Part shown: positions 20,932-54,120 of the stretch, in pieces
Numbering within the stretch: position 1 is the stretch's first letter
Layout of the letters: the number at the start of each line of letters is the position of its first letter
Origin: Patescibacteria group bacterium
Lineage (GTDB): Bacteria > Patescibacteriota > Minisyncoccia > Phycocordibacterales > Phycocordibacteraceae
NCBI GenBank assembly: GCA_029260935.1
Contig: JAJDCJ010000012.1
Location: 33,315-97,314, forward strand
DNA length: 64,000 nucleotides
Reading direction: 5' to 3'
Position numbers and translations under genes: made by a program
The notes under the pieces: generated by a model
The model's input: only the letters and a program-made list of their open reading frames with translations
Told to the model about the DNA's origin: nothing
Database searches by the model: none

Positions 20932-21022
20932 AACAGACTTTTTTGGGTAAGATACTGAGGTGTTGGGGTACGTAAAACTTTCCTTGGCACTACTCAGACA
21001 AAGTCAGTAGTGTGCCGTTGTA

Positions 21023-21157
21023 AGCAAAGCTTGCACCGGCGGCGTTCTAACAAAATATACTCACGGGCGGTTTTGTTCTTTCAGAAAAATGTAAACGAGC
21101 TTTCATTTTTCTTCTATCACAAAACCACGCGCTTCGCGCAATTTCCGTGAGCAACTT
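21023..21157 (+). mobile_element. about 135-nt inserted element beginning AGCAAAGCTT, flanked by a 9-bp duplication of the tRNA-Thr 5' end
   Basis: GCCGTTGTA occurs at 21014-21022 and again as the first 9 nt of the tRNA at 21158-21166. Confidence 0.5.
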
Positions 21158-21762: not shown

Positions 21763-21878
21763 CTATACCAATTCTACCGTCCCCCAGTATGTCCTATCGG
21801 GGGGGTGCTTTTTATTCTTATTTTCCACAATCATCTGTTACCCCCCCCTATAGACACTGGATGTCCATGGGGGATTCA

Positions 21879-21931
21879 GCCACGTAAAAGTAAATATGGA
21901 CACGCCGTGTCCATATTTACTTTTACGTGGC
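21879..21931. repeat. 53-bp perfect palindrome
   Basis: GCCACGTAAAAGTAAATATGGACACG / CGTGTCCATATTTACTTTTACGTGGC; its 27-bp core recurs at 44164-44196. Confidence 0.9.
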
Positions 21932-21932
21932 T

Positions 21933-22090
21933 CTCCGGCGAAGCCGGACCCAGCTCCGCCGGGCGGTCCGCATATGTAAGCAAAGCTTCCTCTCATCGAT
22001 CACTCGGAAGAGTAACCGCATTCACTCTTCCCTCGCTTCTCTCGATAGTAAAGAAAAACAGTACGCAGGTACTGTTTGTTCTTTCATATG
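21933..22090. repeat. repeat-family copy: GCTCCGCCGGGC motif, GTAAGCAAAGCTT, internal hairpins, ending at the tRNA-Asp 3' end
   Basis: Shares GCTCCGCCGGGC and GTAAGCAAAGC with the 48786-49225 array, and TTTGTTCTTTCA with 21023-21157. Confidence 0.6.
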
Positions 22091-22165
22091 CGCGGCCGAC
22101 CGGACTCGAACCGGCAACCTCCCGCGTGACAGGCGGGTGCTACTAACCAATTGAGCTACGGCCGC
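22091..22165 (-). tRNA. tRNA-Asp(GUC)
   Basis: Anticodon loop CUGUCAC, T-loop UUCGAGU, acceptor GCGGCCG/CGGCCGC. Confidence 0.8.
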
Positions 22166-22850
22166 ATTTCGGATACAGAGTATGTATTGCCTTCGAAAAT
22201 AGCTCGTATTTCCTTGGTAAATACAGTTCTGTATTAGGGCTAGTATGATACATCAGCTTGTAAAGTGCAAGACTATCGCGATGACTAAAAACAAGTTCAA
22301 AGCCTCGCTTCTTGTACTTTTCTAAAACAAATCCCCTATTCAGACCATTTTCTCTAAGAGTACTAAAGAGTGTTAGAAGAAATTTTTGAGATCCTGACGT
22401 GAATCTGCTTGTAAATACCCAACGTTTTTTGTTTCGATCTTTAGCAAAATATTTTTTAAAATGAACGCTGCCGTCGCCATCAAAATATCCCCTGACGAAA
22501 TGATGTAAATATCCTTGAGGGACTTTTGGGAAACAGATTGTTTTGCTTTTGTTTTGAGTGAAACCAAGTTTTATCAAATCAGAGAACCATTCTCTACTTC
22601 CAAACTGCACGCGATACTGTTGCTTCCATTTTTCGTTCCTTTGAGGACGTTCCGAAATTTTCTGAGTTCCTCCGACAATCTTCCGTAATTTTTGAAGCAA
22701 AATTTTGTCTGTAGATGTAAATTCAATATAGTGTCCTCCTCTTTTATTCTCAATCATTGAACCGTCTGCGGCAAAATACCCCAATACATACGCCATGTCT
22801 GATGTCCACGTTTTGAAAAAGTCTTGGTTTAGCTTCTTTTTTATTGGCAC
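22143..22850 (-). CDS. double-motif LAGLIDADG homing-endonuclease-family protein, free-standing, directly 5' of tRNA-Asp
   Basis: Two motifs, VLGYFAADGSM and VRGYFDGDGSV, spaced about 100 aa apart; the 3' end overlaps the tRNA 5' region by about 23 nt. Confidence 0.7.
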   Translation of the reverse strand: MPIKKKLNQDFFKTWTSDMAYVLGYFAADGSMIENKRGGHYIEFTSTDKILLQKLRKIVGGTQKISERPQRNEKWKQQYRVQFGSREWFSDLIKLGFTQNKSKTICFPKVPQGYLHHFVRGYFDGDGSVHFKKYFAKDRNKKRWVFTSRFTSGSQKFLLTLFSTLRENGLNRGFVLEKYKKRGFELVFSHRDSLALYKLMYHTSPNTELYLPRKYELFSKAIHTLYPKCGRSSIG

Positions 22851-24123: not shown

Positions 24124-24161
24124 TCACTTTTTAATAAAAATGGGTGTGGGTGGTCTAGCAT

Positions 24162-24401
24162 TTATTTGGTAGGTCCCTTGGTACTGCCATGCCCACGACA
24201 CCCTTCGCATTTTTTAAATAGGTCTTCTACGAACCAACCGCCACGATTTCCGCAATGTTGACACCCTCCACCTTCACACTTCCTACATATATGCCACGAT
24301 TTTCCATACCCAGACCCCTTACATTTTGTACAAATAGTAGGATCAAAATCTTTTTTGTATTGAGTTTCAAACATATGGTGCCGACGGCAGGAATTGGTCA
24401 C
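24162..24401 (-). CDS. small DnaJ-type zinc-finger protein (four CxxCxGxG repeats); likely start MFETQYKK
   Basis: CTKCKGSG, CRKCEGGG, CQHCGNRG, CEGCRGHG; the annotated N-terminus overlaps the tRNA-Met-derived repeat. Confidence 0.55.
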   Translation of the reverse strand: MTNSCRRHHMFETQYKKDFDPTICTKCKGSGYGKSWHICRKCEGGGCQHCGNRGGWFVEDLFKKCEGCRGHGSTKGPTK

Positions 24402-24768
24402 CCGTCGCTAACCATTTTACTTCATAAACTCGTAAAATGCTAATCGCGCTCCACCCCGACTCGGCAACGTGTGCTCCGCCACGGCTTCGCACCCTCTGTC
24501 TTTCAATTCCTTCCGTCTTGTTCAAATTGTAAAAAATACTATGCATGCGCATAGTATTTAACAATTTGTGCCGACGGCAGGAATTGGTCAGGAGTCCATG
24601 AAAATTAGAGTCACTGCCGTTCCTTAATTTTCTATGGCTCACGACCCTGGCTCGGCGACAAGCACTCGTCGTACCTCCTCGTCTTGTATACCGCCTCCGC
24701 CTTTCAATTCCTGTCAATCAGGCACATTGTAAAAAACACCATACTCAAACGTATGATGTTTTACAATG
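24367..24768. repeat. two tandem about-200-bp units, each ending with a copy of the tRNA-Met 3' end (GTGCCGACGGCAGGAATTG)
   Basis: The 19-mer occurs at 24367, 24568 and 24768 (the last is the tRNA itself). The units share CTCGGC, CTTTCAATTCCT and TTGTAAAAAA blocks. Confidence 0.8.
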
Positions 24769-24844
24769 TGTGCCGACGGCAGGAATTGAACCTGCGACCT
24801 TAGCTTTATGAGTGCTACGCTCTAACCAACTGAGCTACGCCGGC
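24769..24844 (-). tRNA. tRNA-Met(CAU) elongator-type (could be the k2C Ile2 species)
   Basis: Acceptor GCCGGCG/CGUCGGC, anticodon loop CUCAUAA, T-loop UUCAAUU. Confidence 0.75.
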
Positions 24845-24896: not shown

Positions 24897-25070
24897 CCGA
24901 CGCAAGCTCCGCTTACGCCGGCAAACTGCTTACGAGGATAGCGCGAAGCGCGTGTTTTTGCGAGTGAAGAAAAACAGAAGCTTGTTTATGTTTTTCTGAG
25001 AGAGCAAAAAAACTCGAAAGCGTATTCTGTCAGAGTGGGCCCGACGCAAGCTCCGCTTACGCCGGCAAAC
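24897..25070. repeat. two copies of a 30-nt acceptor-stem minihelix repeat CCGACGCAAGCTCCGCTTACGCCGGCAAAC
   Basis: Copies at 24897-24926 and 25041-25070. Read on the minus strand they give GCCGGCG-UAAGCGGAGCUUG-CGUCGGC, reproducing the tRNA-Met acceptor stem. Confidence 0.75.
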
Positions 25071-25121
25071 TCTTTCAGTTCTCAAAAAATACCATTTTTT
25101 GATGGAAAAAGAAATAAAAAA

Positions 25122-25450
25122 TGTTGCGGGGCCCAGAATCGAACTGGGGTCTGGAGGTTCTTTTACACTCAATGTTTCCAAAGAGAATGGACTATACCAT
25201 GGTCCACGTGGGACCCTCCCATTATAGTCTCTGAACCTTCCGAGCTATATCAAACGATATGGCTTGGCTTGGCTGCTGATTACCGAATCAACTTGCTTTT
25301 TAAACCATCGCACTCACCCTCTCAGGTCATGCTGTGGTGCAAGAAGCTCTAACGGCTTTCCAGCAATTTAGAGAGTTTTCCACCGTCTGTTGCCAAACGG
25401 GGTCACGTTCTTCACATGAGCCTCCCGAGGTACCTCTCCTCTACCCCGCG
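25122..25450 (-). ncRNA. about 330-nt structured RNA with tRNA-like T-arm and acceptor end; possible tmRNA (ssrA), unconfirmed
   Basis: 3' end CCCAGUUCGAUUCUGGG-CCCCGCA-A-CA pairs with 5' CGCGGGG. The region has no ORF and smpB is present in the window. There is no G3-U70 pair and no classic tag. Confidence 0.35.
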
Positions 25451-25537
25451 CTATCAGCATATGACATTAAGCTCTACTCGTCAACAAAGTAGCGAGATTA
25501 ACGTGACGCGCTCGTATTCTTGAGTCAATAACCACTA

Positions 25538-32516: not shown

Positions 32517-33409
32517 TGCGCAATAATAAAAGGAGAAATAGTGGTAAACATGCCGACTAAGGCTGCTATAAACAGAAAGGGCACGAATGCTATTTCACTC
32601 TTCATCTTAAACCAGAAATTGCCTTCTGTTTGAGAAACACCTCGCCTGTGTGGTGATAAAGAAAATACCATTTTTCTAATGAAAAACGCTATCCGCGGTG
32701 CAAGGATAAGAGACACTCCAATAAGTGCCCCTATCCAAAAAGCAATTGTTATCACTTCAATACCGCGCCCCACTCCAAACAACACACCGAGGGCACTTGC
32801 GATATAAATATCCCCCACTCCCATTCCTTTTCCATGGGAAAGAAACACAATTGCAGTAAAAAACCCACCCAACACAAGCGCGCCCAAAAATGCATCAAGA
32901 AGTGGTGTAACACTGTTCATTGAAAAAGCTTCAAACACACGGACCAGAATAACTGAACCCAACACTACCCACGCAAACAAAGACGGCACCAATGTGTGGC
33001 GTATGTCGTACACCACTAATACAAGAAAACTTGACCAAAACACCAGGAGTACAACAAAAGAAAAGAGATGCCATATCGAGATAAAAGGAAACGCACCATA
33101 TGCAACACCAAGGAACAGTAATCCTGTTGCGAGTTCAACTAATGGGTACTGCAAGGAAAGTCGGCTCCCGCAGTAACGACATGTCCCCAAAAGGAAAAAG
33201 TACGAAAGTAGCGGAATGAGTTCATACCACACAAGCGTGTGCTGACATGACTGACACTGCGAGCGGGGTCTTTTTGACTCATAAAATCCAAAGCGAAAAA
33301 TAACAACATTGAGAAAACTCCCTACAATGAGACCTAACAAAAACATGCTTATTAAAAATATATCCATAACGGTTTCTCCATTGAGTATGCCATATAAAAA
33401 AACCGACAT
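32498..33409 (-). CDS. pilD: prepilin peptidase PilD (likely start at MDIFLIS, about 33367)
   Basis: Zinc-finger cysteines CQSC...CRYC, DIRHTLVP and multiple TM segments. Confidence 0.8.
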   Translation of the reverse strand: MSVFLYGILNGETVMDIFLISMFLLGLIVGSFLNVVIFRFGFYESKRPRSQCQSCQHTLVWYELIPLLSYFFLLGTCRYCGSRLSLQYPLVELATGLLFLGVAYGAFPFISIWHLFSFVVLLVFWSSFLVLVVYDIRHTLVPSLFAWVVLGSVILVRVFEAFSMNSVTPLLDAFLGALVLGGFFTAIVFLSHGKGMGVGDIYIASALGVLFGVGRGIEVITIAFWIGALIGVSLILAPRIAFFIRKMVFSLSPHRRGVSQTEGNFWFKMKSEIAFVPFLFIAALVGMFTTISPFIIAQWALAI

Positions 33410-43447: not shown

Positions 43448-43468
43448 GGCGGAGACGCAGGGATTCGG
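43448..43468. repeat. partial copy of the tRNA-Ser 3' end (GCGGAGACGCAGGGATTCGG)
   Basis: Matches 43641-43661, the tRNA T-arm and acceptor, at 20 of 21 positions. Confidence 0.75.
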
Positions 43469-43639
43469 TCACCTTTACTAAGTATTTTACTCCTCTCGTT
43501 CGTAAAACACTAAGTGACGCGACCCCGTCGGCTACTACTGCGTATTCTCGCAGGCTTCGCAGTAGCCTCTTTTCGAATCCCTCATCGTCCGTAGAATGTA
43601 CAAGCCAAAATGCTATTCGCATCAGGGCTTACCATTTTA

Positions 43640-43728
43640 TGCGGAGACGGAGGGATTCGAACCCTCGAGGGGTATTACCCCCTGGCACATTAGCAGCGTG
43701 CTGGTTTCAACCACTCACCCACGTCTCC
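43640..43728 (-). tRNA. tRNA-Ser(GCU), class II with long variable arm
   Basis: Acceptor GGAGACG/CGUCUCC, D-arm GGU/ACC with loop GAGUGGUUGAA, anticodon loop CUGCUAA, variable arm CAGGGGGUAAUACCCCUCG, T-loop UUCGAAU. Confidence 0.8.
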
Positions 43729-44085: not shown

Positions 44086-44196
44086 TAGCACAGTACCTAC
44101 GTATATAAATACGTATTTATATACGTAGGTGTTGTAAGAAACAAAAACCCTTTCACACACTAGTTGAAATATGGACACGGCGTGTCCATATTTCAA
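44086..44196. promoter_or_regulatory. divergent intergenic region with two perfect palindromes
   Basis: Palindrome 1 (44086-44119): CCTACGTATATAAATACG/CGTATTTATATACGTAGG. Palindrome 2 (44164-44196): TTGAAATATGGACACG/CGTGTCCATATTTCAA. Both lie between the AbrB-like gene and zwf. Confidence 0.7.
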
Positions 44197-46568: not shown

Positions 46569-48713
46569 ATGGTACTTGACGACCTTTTGGGCACCCATAC
46601 CCGTCTTACAAAACACCACACCCCCGGGCTTGAAAAGCTCGGGATTACAACGGTGCGCGACCTCCTCTATCACCTGCCAAGCCGGTATGAATCTTCAGCT
46701 GATATTAGACAAGTTAAAAATGTTACCTCAGGAGAAACGGTAGTGCTGTATGGACAATTTTCAAAACTAGAAACAAAGCGTTCATTTAAAACGCGCGTGC
46801 CTATAGCGGAAGGAACATTCAGCGACGATACTGGCTCAGTAAAAGTAACGTGGTTTCATCAGCCATACCTTGCAAAAATGATTCCTACGGGACAGTTAGT
46901 GCGACTCCGCGGTAAAGTAACGGAACGCTCGGGAAGAAAATATATCGCAAACCCCACTGTTGAAAAAACAGACGGCATTCCTTTACTGGAGGGACGTGAC
47001 GGGCTCTTTCCGGTCTACCCCGAGTCGCTTGGACTTTCGTCCCTGTGGGTGTATCACACGGTGCAGAAGTTATTGCGCGACATTGACTGGGACACTGTTG
47101 TTGATCCTCTTCCTGAGGCAATCCGCAAAAAATACCATTTACCCGATATTAAATCAGCGCTCATCTTTGCACACGAGCCAAAAAAAGAAAAAGACGCTGA
47201 GGCCGCGCGCAAGCGTTTTGCGTTTGAAGAAGTGTTCCTTATCCAAATAGCACGCGCGCTTCAAAGAGAAGCACACACCCAGGAACACTCCTATGAGGTT
47301 TCGGTTGAACCTGACCTCATTCAAGAGTTTATTGACTCGTTCCCTTTTACACCGACTTTAGGACAAACAACATCTATTAATGAAATCCTTGAGGACTTTA
47401 AAAAACCGGCACCTATGTATCGCCTTCTTGAGGGCGATGTCGGCAGTGGAAAAACAGCAGTTGCTGCGGCAACCGCATACGCAGTTGCCACGAGCAGGCC
47501 AAAAAACTCAAACGGGGAAAAGCAGTCTTTCGGACGATTGCAGGTTGCCTACATGGTACCGACTGAAATACTTGCCAAACAACACTTTAAAACATTCACT
47601 GATTTTTTTATTGACCACCCATTGAACATTGGGTTGATTACCGGTAGCGGATGTTACAAGTTTCCCTCTAAAGTAAAACCAACAGAGGCAACACCGCTTT
47701 CACGTGCGCAGTTTTTAAAGCTGGTTAAAAACGGCGAGATACCTATTGTTATCGGCACTCATGCACTCATTCAAAAAACAATTGAATTTAAACACCTCGC
47801 CTACGCCATTATTGATGAACAACATCGCTTTGGAACAGTACAGAGAAAGAAAATTACTACGAAAAACGATACGCAACCACACCTGCTTTCAATGACCGCA
47901 ACCCCCATTCCCCGCACACTAGCGCTCACCCTGTATGGCGACCTGGATTTAACAGTACTTGAACACATGCCGCAAGGTAGAAAAGAAATACAAACCGAAA
48001 TAATAACTCCCGCACACCGCGCTCGCGCATATGAGCACATACGAGCCCTTATAAAAGAAGGTCGGCAAGCGTATGTTATTTGCCCCCGCATTGATGAACC
48101 GGACCCCACCAAACACATGGCGCTCCAGACACGTTCAGTTGCAAGTGAAGTAAAAAAATTGTGCACTGACGTGTTTCCTGAATACTCAATTGGAAAACTT
48201 CACAGCCGCATGACACCGAAGGAAAAAACAGAAGCTATGGAAGCTTTTGAAAAAGGAGAAACTGATATTTTGGTTTCAACAAGTGTGGTTGAAGTGGGGG
48301 TGAATGTGCCGAATGCAACGGTTATTATGATTGAAGGAGCAGAGCGTTTTGGGCTGGCACAACTTCATCAACTCCGCGGTCGGGTGATGCGTTCCAGTCA
48401 CCAGCCCTACTCATATTTAATGGTTGAATCAAATGCAAAAGCAGAATCAGCACGCCTCAAGGCAATTGTAAAAGCAAAAAACGGCTTTGAGTTAGCAGAG
48501 AAAGATTTAGAAATACGTGGCGCCGGCGAGCTGTACGGAGCGCGACAGTCCGGCCTCTCCGACATCGGCATGGAGGCGCTGAAAAACTTGAAACTGGTAG
48601 AAGCGGCGCGAAGCGAAGCCAGCCTCCTAGTAAAAAAAGACCCGACCCTTAAAAAACATCCAGTTCTTTTGGAACGGGCCCAAAAAACCGTGAAGGCGTT
48701 GCATTTTGAATAA
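46569..48713 (+). CDS. recG: ATP-dependent DNA helicase RecG
   Basis: Wedge domain followed by a DEQH helicase core with GDVGSGKT Walker A; 714 aa. Confidence 0.85.
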   Translation: MVLDDLLGTHTRLTKHHTPGLEKLGITTVRDLLYHLPSRYESSADIRQVKNVTSGETVVLYGQFSKLETKRSFKTRVPIAEGTFSDDTGSVKVTWFHQPYLAKMIPTGQLVRLRGKVTERSGRKYIANPTVEKTDGIPLLEGRDGLFPVYPESLGLSSLWVYHTVQKLLRDIDWDTVVDPLPEAIRKKYHLPDIKSALIFAHEPKKEKDAEAARKRFAFEEVFLIQIARALQREAHTQEHSYEVSVEPDLIQEFIDSFPFTPTLGQTTSINEILEDFKKPAPMYRLLEGDVGSGKTAVAAATAYAVATSRPKNSNGEKQSFGRLQVAYMVPTEILAKQHFKTFTDFFIDHPLNIGLITGSGCYKFPSKVKPTEATPLSRAQFLKLVKNGEIPIVIGTHALIQKTIEFKHLAYAIIDEQHRFGTVQRKKITTKNDTQPHLLSMTATPIPRTLALTLYGDLDLTVLEHMPQGRKEIQTEIITPAHRARAYEHIRALIKEGRQAYVICPRIDEPDPTKHMALQTRSVASEVKKLCTDVFPEYSIGKLHSRMTPKEKTEAMEAFEKGETDILVSTSVVEVGVNVPNATVIMIEGAERFGLAQLHQLRGRVMRSSHQPYSYLMVESNAKAESARLKAIVKAKNGFELAEKDLEIRGAGELYGARQSGLSDIGMEALKNLKLVEAARSEASLLVKKDPTLKKHPVLLERAQKTVKALHFE

Positions 48714-48742
48714 ACGGCTCAACCTTGATTGAGCCGTTTATT
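48712..48742 (+). terminator. hairpin AAACGGCTCAACCTTGATTGAGCCGTTT after recG
   Basis: Inverted repeat followed by a T-rich tail. Confidence 0.6.
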
Positions 48743-48785
48743 CATACCAACTGACCCTTCTGCAAGATGGCAGTGTGTAGGCTTG

Positions 48786-49225
48786 TTTGTCGTCACAAGT
48801 AATTTTCCTGACGGAAAATTTTCGCGCGACCAATTTCTCTTATGAGTCAGACGAATTAGAGAAATGGAAGTACTCCTGTGGTGACCCCGGCTCGCCCGGC
48901 TCCGCCGGGCTGCGCCTCTCGGACATGTACGCGAAAACGCCAAGCAGTTGGCTTACGTGTCGTCACAGATAATCCTTCGTCGCCACTCAGGATTTCCGCG
49001 ACCCCGGCTCGTGGTTTTTCCTGCTGGAAAAACATCACTGCGCCTCGGACAAACGCACAAAAACCTGCCGCAGGGCAGGTCTTTGTGTACTTGTCGTCAC
49101 AAGTTGCTAAGTATTTTAGAGCGCTTCGCTTCTAGAATACTAAGCACTCGCGACCCCGGCTCGCCCGGCTCCGCCGGGCTGCGCCTCTCGAACCAGCGCC
49201 GTAAGCAAAGCAGTTTGCTTACTAA
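48786..49225. repeat. tandem array of three composite repeat units (130-170 nt each)
   Basis: Each unit is TGTCGTCACARRT, a unit-specific palindromic hairpin, CGCGACCCCGGCTCG, a second hairpin (CCCGGCTCCGCCGGG in units 1 and 3), CTGCGCCTC(T)CG, then a variable tail. Unit 3 ends with GTAAGCAAAGCAGTTTGCTTAC. Confidence 0.8.
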
Positions 49226-49260
49226 TAAAAAACATCCCTCTATAACTGGGGATGTTTTTT
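49226..49260. terminator. hairpin AAAAAACATCCC...GGGGATGTTTTTT, bidirectional
   Basis: Perfect stem flanked by A and T runs, immediately 3' of tRNA-Ile. Confidence 0.6.
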
Positions 49261-49267
49261 ATTACGC

Positions 49268-49345
49268 TGGTCCGCCCTCTTGGACTCGAACCAAGAAACC
49301 TTCTAGGTATAAGCTAGATGCTCTAACCAATTGAGCTAAGGGCGG
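49268..49345 (-). tRNA. tRNA-Ile(UAU)
   Basis: Acceptor CCGCCCU/AGGGCGG, D-arm GCUC/GAGC, anticodon stem UCUAG/CUAGA with loop CUUAUAC, T-loop UUCGAGU, encoded CCA. Confidence 0.75.
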
Positions 49346-49352
49346 ACTTAAA

Positions 49353-50063
49353 CTATAGCGCTTTTGTGGGGTCAAACGCAACACCACCATACACCTCTCT
49401 CAATCTCGCAATACCTGCCGCAATTTTCTCGCGCAGATCTCTGTTCCTGAAATATATATTGCATGTTCCGTAACCAAAGCGTCCTTTATAGTTTTTCTGC
49501 TTCTTCGTGGTCGTTTTTTTGATATATGGTTTTCTAAAGGAAGATTTTGCAATACCCAACTCCTCTGACCAAAAAGAAATCGCTGAAGCAATGTTCATAT
49601 CTTCGTAAAGGTGTAAATAAACTTTTAGTTCGTCTTTTTTAACACCCAAAAATTCAATCCATTTAATAAAACTTTTTATCATAGCTGGGTCAGTGTTGGT
49701 GAACATGACCGTATACGGATCTGCTTTAAGCCCTTCACCCCAATAGAGGAAAAAGCCAGCGATGTATAATTCGCGCTTTGAGATTCTCCCAATATCTCTC
49801 ACTGCTAATGTATAAACATTTTGCAAGCGGGCAAGTTTTTTCTTCCGTTTTGTCTCTCTTGTTTTCTCTATGCGCTTTTCTGAATGATCACGAAGCTCTC
49901 TGATGCGTTTTTCTGACAATGGCATATCACGAAGCCATAGACTCAATGTACTTTTACTCACATTAAGTTTTTCTTTAATCTGACCATAACTCATCCCCTT
50001 TTTACGTAAGGATACTGCCTGTTCTCTGTCTTTATGTCGCGCCATAATCAAACCTTTAAACAA
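49353..50063 (-). CDS. HTH-domain protein with a single degenerate LAGLIDADG-like motif, directly 5' of tRNA-Ile
   Basis: N-terminal HTH (MSYGQIKEKLNVSKSTLSLWLRD) and LAGLIDADG-like IAGFFLYWGEGL with Glu in place of Asp. Confidence 0.45.
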   Translation of the reverse strand: MFKGLIMARHKDREQAVSLRKKGMSYGQIKEKLNVSKSTLSLWLRDMPLSEKRIRELRDHSEKRIEKTRETKRKKKLARLQNVYTLAVRDIGRISKRELYIAGFFLYWGEGLKADPYTVMFTNTDPAMIKSFIKWIEFLGVKKDELKVYLHLYEDMNIASAISFWSEELGIAKSSFRKPYIKKTTTKKQKNYKGRFGYGTCNIYFRNRDLREKIAAGIARLREVYGGVAFDPTKAL

Positions 50064-53240: not shown

Positions 53241-53293
53241 CCCCGAAATTGTCCGAATTGTCCGAAGTCTAGACTTCGGACAATTTCGGGGGG
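53241..53293 (+). terminator. nested palindrome CCCCGAAATTGTCCGAA[TTGTCCGAAGTCTAGACTTCGGACAA]TTTCGGGG after smpB
   Basis: 26-nt perfect inner palindrome inside an outer 8-bp stem. Confidence 0.55.
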
Positions 53294-54120
53294 TGATCGG
53301 CTTCGACAATAAGTTTTTGTTTTCTACGTGCAAAACGGTGAATGCTGGAGAACACCTTAAACCTCGAGTAAATACAACGTGCAAACGCTGTAAAGAGTCC
53401 GTACCAAGCCCTTTTGGGTCTTGGTCAACTCGTTCCTGTTCGCGCGTAAGCGTAGAACGGCATCACATTCTCTGACTCCTGATATGGGAGTGCTGGTGTA
53501 ATACCATCAGGATAAGGAAGCGACGTGCTCGTTCGCTTCTCAAAAATTAAGAGCTCGATACCACATGCTTTTGTTTACTTTTTATATGTGTTATTTAAAA
53601 CCCTAAAGTAAACTACGTTTTGTAGAATCGTCTTAAACTTTCTTGTTGCATCCGGGTTCGATTCCCGGCATCTCCACAGCTGAACGAACCGCCTTTCGAG
53701 GCGGTTTTCGTTTTGCTGAGAGATGGAGCGAGTGAACTGCTTCACTCGCGTTGGGAATTGAAAGCCGGAATGCCACACCTCGCGAGGTGTGGCATGCGTC
53801 GGGTCGCGGAATTTCCGAGTGGCTGACGAGGAAATATCTGTGACCGATGCGTGCGAGCGCCAGCGAAGACACTTCTCGGCATCTCCACCAGTGAAATAAA
53901 ATACCGCCCAGCTCGGGTGGTATTTATTTTTCCTTACAAACTACAAAAACAAGTTATCTCCCCTTTCCAATTATGAGAACACGCGTAGCACCCACCCGAT
54001 TTTCCTTTACATCTATTGCAGAGCACCGTCCCCGTACCACAACAAGCGCTACACCACTTCGTCTCTTTTAGAGCTCTTTTCTCAGACATACCTACTTACT
54101 ATTAATAGTATACTAGCCAT
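53294..54120. other. about 830-bp ORF-poor region with two tRNA-3'-end-like fragments, palindromes and two hairpin-plus-T-run terminators
   Basis: T-arm plus acceptor-like TTGCATCCGGGTTCGATTCCCGGCATCTCCACA at 53646-53678 and a CGGCATCTCCACCA copy at 53887-53900. Perfect palindrome GCCACACCTCGCGAGGTGTGGC. Only short overlapping ORFs. Confidence 0.5.

Follow-up and report, generated by a model that had tools for sequence, protein, structure and literature searches.

Three tandem copies of a tRNA-linked structured element behind tRNA-Ile(UAU) and their relatives across Patescibacteria

tRNA-like RNAs that are released from longer transcripts include mascRNA, which comes from MALAT1, and the tRNA-like domain of the bacterial YrlA/Y RNAs. 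Two RNA classes supported by covariation, GOLLD and ROOL (500–800 nt, both in Rfam), tend to adjoin tRNA genes. At the DNA level, insertions at the attachment (att) sites of tyrosine integrases are bounded by a direct repeat of the 3′ end of a tRNA or transfer-messenger RNA (tmRNA), and various short GC-rich structured intergenic repeats with interchangeable hairpin modules have been described: repetitive extragenic palindromic (REP) sequences and bacterial interspersed mosaic elements (BIMEs), miniature inverted-repeat transposable elements (MITEs) and palindromes derived from IS200/IS605. In this work, we analyzed a window of 64,000 nucleotides (the whole stretch of DNA considered here, i.e. 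positions 33,315 to 97,314 of contig JAJDCJ010000012.1, assembly GCA_029260935.1, from a Patescibacteria group bacterium of the Phycocordibacteraceae). Its array located 3′ of tRNA-Ile(UAU) consists of three tandem copies of a conserved, strand-specific structured element lying on the tRNA strand. This element represents a new tRNA-linked structured RNA family that is uncatalogued in Rfam and that may be mobile.

From what is generally known of mascRNA and YrlA, the element resembles them in being a small structured RNA whose helices mimic parts of a tRNA, whose ends imitate the acceptor and T region, and which would plausibly be cut from a longer precursor by tRNA-processing enzymes. However, its units have neither T-loop nor D-loop but a three-way junction with a core of its own, are not called as tRNAs by ARAGORN and are physically tied to tRNA genes, in tandem. 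It shares with GOLLD and ROOL the support by covariation and the vicinity of tRNA genes but is far smaller (about 100–130 nt) and has no Rfam match. With REP/BIME sequences, MITEs and IS200/IS605-derived palindromes, it has in common a short GC-rich intergenic structure, interchangeable hairpin modules, a variable copy number, a strand-specific folding and the regeneration of a target-like end; unlike them, it is confined to the 3′ flank of tRNA and tmRNA genes instead of being dispersed, it forms a three-way junction instead of a simple palindrome and its core is kept across a phylum-level radiation. A first-pass annotation of this DNA had hesitated between a BIME/REP-like mosaic and tandem small-RNA genes. 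The second proposal is the best supported, by the strand-specific covariation found in the three-way junction. As for the first, the swappable hairpin tips, the varying copy number and the spread between loci are indeed observed, but these traits do not by themselves establish membership in that family.

The array occupies the region 48745-49268, flanked by the 3′ end of recG on the plus strand (stop codon at 48713; recG has a terminator hairpin of its own, 48707-48744) and by tRNA-Ile(UAU) on the minus strand. This tRNA gene (49268..49345, minus strand), called by ARAGORN and matched by the Rfam tRNA model with 66.2 bits, has the acceptor CCGCCC.../...GGGCGG-A-CCA; the array follows it immediately 3′, in the same orientation. 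Three composite units are present between the two genes, as first annotated: the blocks TGTCGTCACA and GACCCCGGCTCG each occur in three exact copies and the block CTGCGCCTCTCG in two exact copies and one copy devoid of the T. All these copies are found inside 400 nt, the remainder of the 64 kb containing only mismatched matches, and the hairpins between the blocks are specific to each unit. The array is not a clustered regularly interspaced short palindromic repeat (CRISPR) array, a point on which the first annotation was right, since its units are unequal in length (104–148 nt), comprise several conserved blocks and hairpins each and lack any repeat/spacer periodicity. The layout in blocks and hairpins that had been proposed also stands, but its order has to be reversed, the informative strand being the minus one, on which all three units (Ile-3, Ile-2 and Ile-1) are co-oriented with tRNA-Ile(UAU). 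Read on this strand, each unit consists of GUCCGAG..., the P2 hairpin, CGAGNCGGGGUCGCG, the P3 hairpin and GUGACGAC; written with its variable positions, it reads GUCCGAG-N-CG(G/C)AG, hairpin, CGAG-N′-CGGGGUCGCG, second hairpin, YGUGACGAC. The "variable tails" attributed to the units exist but are hairpins with a CUGC loop, one located 5′ of each unit, those after Ile-3 and Ile-2 being followed by U-runs.

Starting from the tRNA, the minus strand carries a hairpin with A- and U-tract arms that resembles a bidirectional terminator (49223..49264; inverted repeat I2, 16/16 complementary), then the CUGC-loop hairpin GUAAGCAAA-CUGC-UUUGCUUAC (49201..49222) and unit Ile-3 (49087..49199), a three-way junction that a covariance model of the element (R1, whose E-values are rough) scores at 62.7 bits (E 7.5e-18; fold z −3.9) and whose 5′ end, GGUUCGAGAGG, echoes the T-loop of tRNA-Ile. 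The hairpin CCUGCC-CUGC-GGCAGG and its U-run (49057..49084, stem 49063-49080) separate it from Ile-2 (48953..49056), which is the most canonical unit, GUCCGAGGCGCAG-P2-CGAGCCGGGGUCGCG-P3-GUGACGAC (R1 90.6 bits, E 1e-26; fold z −3.4). The hairpin GCCAA-CUGC-UUGGC and its U-run (48932..48952), recognised like the two other CUGC-loop hairpins from their letters, precede Ile-1 (48783..48930; R1 25.3 bits, E 6e-06), which has the same core and an additional hairpin, some 60 nt long, that interrupts P3 at its base. Apparent counterparts of Ile-2 and of Ile-1, the latter with the same insertion, are found in a relative belonging to Kaiserbacteria (locus L002, 4812-4919 and 4948-5115, respectively).

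The element, which spans 95–140 nt in each of the three copies of the array, folds into a three-way junction made of helices P1, P2 and P3. P1 is a short terminal helix, UGUC/GACA, at times a few pairs longer (NNUGUC/GACANN in A1, a hand-built alignment of 19 units from 18 loci), and a CGA linker joins it to P2. The latter is composed of P2a (GNC/GN′C), an internal loop (GSA/GA), P2b (3 bp), a WU bulge and a variable hairpin, P2c. A GGG linker leads to P3 (GUCGYG...YGUGAC), which has a variable tip, a bulged A and a G·U pair that is nearly invariant; P3 is continued without interruption by the 3′ strand of P1. Covariation is seen between N and N′ (C-G, G-C, A-U) and also in the stem above these positions. 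In A1, 91% of the cells pair, compared to 26–47% when the partners are slid, and 19 of the 29 pairs show two-sided changes. Covariation, which the first-pass annotation had proposed to analyze in the variable hairpins, was examined for the whole unit on an independent metagenome set (116 matches of R1 in 83 contigs, i.e. 106 distinct sequences): 93.9% of the cells pair, compared to 30–47% after sliding, 27 of the 29 pairs are compensatory, and none of 500 shuffles reaches the observed value on any of five measures. The alignment of this set was fitted to R1, which somewhat inflates the pairing; the hand-built A1 shows the same picture. Compensatory pairs on one strand, the generic mark of a structured RNA, are thereby found in this element. 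The G·U pair (columns 170/316) is present in 98 of the 106 sequences, and a second pair is G·U in 39 of them. Because G·U pairs would be C·A mismatches on the opposite strand, the fold was assigned to the tRNA strand. Furthermore, the unpaired nucleotides of the junction (CGA, GSA/GA, GGG and the bulged A) are nearly invariant from Saccharibacteria to Kaiserbacteria.

Searches among catalogued families did not identify this element. Rfam 15 has no family for it, whether at gathering score across the window or at permissive E-values on the Ile-locus units and on loci L085 and L087, which gave only noise below the gathering score. ARAGORN detects no tRNA in any unit interval, and the Rfam tRNA model (RF00005) gives no match at permissive E-values on the Ile-locus units and the L085 and L087 arrays, the resemblance of the units to tRNA being limited to their ends. 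No tRNA-linked RNA motif of this kind from the candidate phyla radiation (CPR) was found in the literature searched. Tandem interspaced guide RNA (TIGR) arrays were considered and rejected, being unrelated in size and form. To our knowledge, and by eye, there is no convincing match with the hammerhead, twister, pistol, hatchet and hepatitis delta virus-like cores, nor with the ZTP riboswitch, the signal recognition particle RNA, 5S RNA or the Ro-binding helix of Y RNA.

A scan of one genome per species with the pattern GTCCGAG..CGGGGTC..GTGACGAC revealed at least 120 loci, which were examined as 8-kb stretches. The full element is present at loci from Saccharibacteria, Paceibacteria, Kaiserbacteria, Nomurabacteria and other Patescibacteria, and a stricter pattern yielded the 83 metagenome contigs. 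The units of CPR that match the pattern score 59–100 bits with R1, compared to at most 26 bits for the pattern matches outside CPR. Among the five pattern matches in viral contigs, R1 scored only one (L135; 15.5 bits, E 0.006), which is within the chance range of the non-CPR controls. At the 15 CPR genome loci, the unit is always located just 3′ of a co-oriented tRNA-Lys(UUU), tRNA-Lys(CUU) or tRNA-Ile(UAU), and all the linked tRNAs have the acceptor CCGCCC.../...GGGCGG-A-C. Likewise, 71 of the 87 metagenome units defined by the pattern lie at most 400 nt 3′ of a co-oriented tRNA-Lys or tRNA-Ile(UAU), with a median gap of 41 nt: tRNA-Lys(UUU) for 26, tRNA-Lys(CUU) for 23, tRNA-Ile(UAU) for 20 and, for two, a tRNA that ARAGORN calls "Stop (UUA)" and that is probably a mis-registered tRNA-Lys. 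The others have a tRNA-Lys 500–1585 nt upstream (n = 4), lie at most 400 nt from a contig end (n = 11) or have no co-oriented tRNA upstream in the locus (n = 1). As for the matches of R1, 94 out of 116 have a co-oriented tRNA at most 700 nt upstream, the remainder being mostly near locus ends. In Saccharibacteria and Paceibacterota alike, the unit sits between tRNA-Lys and tRNA-Leu. Overall, a location about 40 nt after tRNA-Lys or tRNA-Ile(UAU) is nearly obligatory for the element, which is spread across Patescibacteria. The "tRNA-Stop (UUA)" calls upstream of some units (L085 7127-7200, L193 and L210) concern tRNAs that are near-identical to the tRNA-Lys(UUU) of neighbouring lineages, and they therefore probably reflect a one-base mis-registration of the anticodon rather than suppressor tRNAs. 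Although the very small genomes of Patescibacteria leave hardly any space for dispensable DNA, one or several copies of the element are maintained behind tRNA-Lys and tRNA-Ile(UAU) in many lineages, along with relatives behind other tRNAs and tmRNA.

The spacer between the tRNA and the unit is one long hairpin with an A-tract arm and a U-tract arm, and 36 of the 44 distinct spacers have a CUGC loop. The complementarity of its ends continues up to the ...GGAC of the tRNA and the GUCC... of the unit, 4.34 of 6 positions pairing compared to 3.0 in shuffled sequences. Therefore, UGUCC can pair either with the tRNA 3′ terminus and trailer or, within P1, with the GACA of its own unit. A hairpin with a U-run follows each unit in several arrays (L002 and L086); in L020 and L147, units abut directly, without a hairpin between them. 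The reading that we prefer, to which we give an even chance of being correct, is that the element is transcribed together with the tRNA, acts as RNA around the 3′ end of the latter and multiplies by tandem duplication and recombination between loci. Transcription of the tRNA would read through the CUGC-loop hairpins into the units, which would act as RNA in relation to the tRNA 3′ end, the 5′ strand of the unit pairing with one or the other of the two partners (tRNA terminus and trailer, or its own 3′ end), with a putative role in 3′-end processing, in stability or as a decoy. The copy number would shift when units are duplicated locally in tandem or when tRNA loci with a common GGGCGGAC end recombine. 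If an RNA indeed acts on tRNA 3′ ends, a quarter of bacterial diversity would have an unrecognised step in the maturation or protection of its tRNAs; if the element is mobile, it would be an unusually specific gene-less element that targets tRNAs. On either reading, R1 is a ready covariance model for the annotation of Patescibacteria genomes, and the element accounts for "irregular repeats" that would be misread as CRISPR-like or REP-like arrays if it were not recognised.

More distant relatives of the element are found in the window behind other tRNAs and tmRNA. Two tandem copies lie 3′ of tRNA-Met (24770-24844) on the minus strand: Met-B (24569..24713; R1 36.9 bits) and Met-A (24378..24517; R1 22 bits, E 6.5e-05), both also recognised by their repeats and by their fold, in which Met-A has a 13-bp terminal helix. 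Met-B has a P2a/GGA/GA/GGGUCG core, and its P1 is formed by CAGGAAUUG paired with a 22-nt copy of the tRNA-Met 3′ end, which also terminates Met-A. The end copies of Met-A and Met-B are identical to each other over 23 nt, of which the first 19 match tRNA-Met exactly (24770-24788), and the 26-nt repeat linked to tRNA-Met shows 96% identity. Behind tRNA-Ser(GCU) (43641-43728), an element with a weak R1 score of 11.2 bits (43449..43583, minus strand; fold z −5.8, long terminal helix) forms a three-way junction that ends with a 19/20 match to the tRNA-Ser 3′ end. Another, supported by its fold and by an R1 score of 26.1 bits (E 3e-06), follows the tmRNA gene (53289-53679) on the plus strand (53718..53890), with a terminal CGGCAUCUCCACCA that copies the 3′ end of tmRNA (12 nt plus CCA). 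All these relatives keep the P2a/GGA/GA/GGGUCG...UGAC core with a different terminal helix, whose 5′ arm is antisense to the T-loop and T-stem and is paired with the copy of the neighbour's 3′ end. In L040, L054, L085 and L113, an element of the same architecture, matching the local T-stem, separates tRNA-Lys from the canonical unit; element X of L085 forms a complete acceptor-like helix of 9 bp, GUCCGCCCG/CGGGCGGAC. The copies of the local tRNA or tmRNA 3′ end that terminate the Met, Ser, tmRNA, L040 and L054 elements are 12–22 nt long and exact or one off. The 5′ end of the canonical unit repeats the 5′ end of the pre-tRNA (GU+CCG), and the canonical GUCCG looks like a shortened version of the acceptor-like helix of L085. 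As the relatives carry copies of their neighbour's 3′ end and L085 this acceptor-like helix, we infer that the family apparently derives from tRNA. The minus-strand segment in the trailer of tRNA-Asp (21870..21985), to which the first-pass annotation had ascribed the layout of the array, does share two modules with it, the hairpin CCCGGCGGAGCYGGG and the motif GTAAGCAAAGC (the motif GCUUUGCUUAC being shared as well), but lacks the junction core, and R1 gives it no score; by its sequence, it looks like a decayed copy of tRNA-Asp. This segment contains a near-perfect palindrome of 55 nt (21878-21932), and a related palindrome of 27 nt is located at 44167-44193.

Several observations weigh against an RNA-level element. 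The transcription of the units would need read-through, because the hairpins that precede them look like terminators, and no promoter was recognised for the units, the consensus promoter/terminator scan of the array being uninformative. The outer pairs of P1 are weak (60–67% of the cells paired, compared to 77–99% for the inner four), G·T pairs are tolerated in single-stranded DNA hairpins too, and the copies of tRNA 3′ ends are identical beyond the paired region. Close relatives, found via the helix-turn-helix (HTH) protein encoded upstream of tRNA-Ile, keep FtsH, the HTH gene, tRNA-Ile(UAU), a variable segment and recG, and have 0–3 units at this locus: L002 has two units, apparently Ile-2 and Ile-1, and the start of a third, and L005 a single truncated one; the units are dispensable, being absent from the tRNA-Ile locus of L007, L128, L129 and L130. 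Identical tandem copies are bounded by direct repeats of 8–11 nt: in L086, spacer and unit are present twice in identical form and the 11-nt GACAGCGTAAA recurs at the tRNA/unit, unit/unit and unit/flank junctions; L153 has an 8-nt repeat. Furthermore, units do not cluster by tRNA type, the nearest neighbour being Ile-linked for only 5 of the 21 Ile-linked units, i.e. the background frequency; therefore, units spread or homogenise within genomes. Units of L002 (tRNA-Ile) and L020 (tRNA-Lys), both from Kaiserbacteria, are mutual close relatives, including their spacer hairpin, so that units at different tRNA loci of one lineage exchange or spread. Dispensability, variation in copy number, direct repeats and the lack of clustering by tRNA type thus fit selfish or mobile DNA at least as well. 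It is accordingly possible, although we consider it less probable than an RNA-level role, that the units are non-autonomous mobile or recombinogenic DNA elements targeting tRNA and tmRNA 3′ ends. Such elements would carry an arm antisense to their target (GUCCG against CGGAC, or a longer one against T-loop and T-stem), would rebuild a target-like end (…CGAC or a whole copy of the tRNA 3′ end), would form tandem arrays by repeated insertion and would be recognised through their fold, on one DNA strand, by a recombinase or transposase acting in trans. This would better explain the direct repeats, the 3′-end copies that exceed the paired region, the dispensability and the interspersion of Lys(UUU), Lys(CUU) and Ile(UAU) units. 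The 3′-end direct repeats that flank the Met, Ser, tmRNA, L040, L054 and L085 elements are the classic signature of integration in tRNA and tmRNA genes and, as in tyrosine-integrase insertions, run from T-loop to discriminator and bound the inserted DNA, tmRNA being used besides tRNAs and occupancy being tandem. However, these elements (130–200 bp) are too short to encode an integrase and bear an arm antisense to T-loop and T-stem that forms a hairpin with the repeat, and the canonical Lys/Ile units lack the direct repeat, echoing only 4–5 nt of the tRNA end (GAC(A)). A separate GC-rich segment of 153 bp, present in L005 (5923-6075, inside the loop of the terminator hairpin by recG) and absent from the otherwise identical L006, indicates that small insertions or mobile elements exist in these genomes. 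Against mobility stand the junction kept across phylum-level lineages with its 27 covarying pairs out of 29, which would be unusual for MITE-like repeats, the fixed position at 41 nt within tRNA operons and the failure to find copies away from tRNAs, only one of the 87 metagenome units lacking a co-oriented tRNA upstream in the locus. Neither an integrase nor a transposase was seen beside any array, although no transposase search and no systematic screen of the other open reading frames (ORFs) of the window were made. For the weaker relatives, the model of an integrase attR site does not fit, since their left arm is the reverse complement of T-loop and T-stem and not a copy of the T-arm; tRNA-primed reverse transcription was also rejected, as it does not yield the order antisense arm, module, sense copy. 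More speculatively, and with a probability that we set lower still, these could be self-propagating tRNA-derived elements homing to tRNA and tmRNA 3′ ends via the antisense arm as a "guide" (GUCCG or a longer anti-T-arm), the three-way junction being a handle for an enzyme of the host or of the element; this would be a gene-less, hairpin- or RNA-guided, tRNA-specific system found across Patescibacteria.

Besides the RNA-level element that we prefer, the conservation of the junction nucleotides and the U-run hairpins after Ile-3, Ile-2 and each unit of L002 and L086 could suggest a cis-acting aptamer and terminator controlling, like a riboswitch, the read-through downstream of the tRNA. This is unlikely: often there is nothing downstream to regulate (in the window, what comes after the array is the terminator of the convergent recG), the downstream content differs between loci, and units abut without a hairpin in L020 and L147. 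That the arrays would be neutral debris, i.e. decaying tandem duplicates of tRNA genes and terminators, is very improbable. The resemblance of unit ends to pre-tRNA ends, the trailer of tRNA-Asp, which looks like a decayed tRNA-Asp copy, and the degenerate mini-units found in L013 and L087 would agree with it, but neutral decay would keep neither 29 pairs by compensatory change in 106 distinct sequences nor unpaired junction nucleotides near-invariant in such distant lineages. The first-pass annotation had reported a LAGLIDADG-type gene immediately 5′ of the tRNA both at tRNA-Ile and at tRNA-Asp and had considered a functional link with the array more likely than chance; the array would then be, for example, the recognition site or the mobile cassette of a homing-endonuclease-type gene. 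At tRNA-Asp (22090-22165), a free-standing ORF located 25 nt upstream (22190-22850, minus strand) is a genuine LAGLIDADG_3 member (PF14528, E 9.2e-14, 51.9 bits compared to a cut-off of 22.5). This pairing is however the only true one. At tRNA-Ile, the ORF (49353..50045, minus strand, ending 8 nt before the tRNA) encodes a protein of 230 aa whose N-terminal part is an HTH and whose C-terminal domain is of an uncharacterised alpha/beta type; the TTG start at 50063 proposed initially was replaced by the one at 50045. The HTH itself was detected, Pfam giving only HTH matches below the cut-offs and NCBIfam weak matches to transposase-type HTH domains, but the LAGLIDADG assignment failed. No LAGLIDADG match was found for this protein in Pfam or NCBIfam, Foldseek found no LAGLIDADG structure in PDB for its model (best E 0.03), and hhalign gives a probability of 0.6% against the LAGLIDADG_3 ORF of the window. 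The AlphaFold2 model (mean predicted local distance difference test score of 88) has a predicted C-terminal topology of a-b-a-b-a-b-a-b-a and not abbabba. With a profile of 50 homologues of the HTH family, PDB sequences gave a weak match to I-DmoI (E 0.008), the sole one of its kind; the protein fails the hidden Markov model, profile-profile and fold tests for LAGLIDADG. Moreover, this ORF adjoins tRNA-Ile(UAU) with or without units, most units elsewhere follow tRNA-Lys, and no homologue of it was found in the 8-kb CPR genome loci with units after tRNA-Lys, nor in the two with units after tRNA-Ile. The proposed link therefore does not hold, and the coupling of the array to a homing-endonuclease-type gene is the least credible of all these explanations.

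The HTH protein has 1725 homologues, essentially all in CPR, and is not part of the repeat system. Its gene adjoins tRNA-Ile(UAU) in 8 of 8 contexts, including the unit-free L007, L128, L129 and L130, which suggests a co-transcription with this unusual tRNA or a functional tie to it. In the contexts observed (the window, L002, L004–L007 and L128–L130), the gene always comes after SmpB and FtsH, and it overlaps the tRNA in L129.

Other features were observed in the vicinity of tRNA genes of the window. The motif GTAAGCRRAGC occurs seven times in the whole window, compared to 0.15 expected. A small cysteine-rich ORF with several CxxC, which resembles a zinc ribbon (24150-24375, minus strand), starts directly after the second tRNA-Met-linked element. 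Upstream of tRNA-Met, two identical 31-nt copies of GUUUGCCGGCGUAAGCGGAGCUUGCGUCGG (24897-24927 and 25041-25071, minus strand) each consist of the 5′ strand of the tRNA-Met acceptor, a small hairpin and the 3′ strand of the acceptor, like a tRNA minihelix; an analogous piece, GCCGUUGUAAGCAAAGCUUGCACCGGC, is located upstream of tRNA-Thr (21005-21035, plus strand). Finally, an initiator-type tRNA(CAU) that ARAGORN does not call (25117-25500, minus strand; 5′ CGCGGGGUAGAGG..., 3′ ...CCCCGCAACA) has an anticodon loop that is apparently split by a group I intron (Rfam Intron_gpI, 55.1 bits, 25168-25500).

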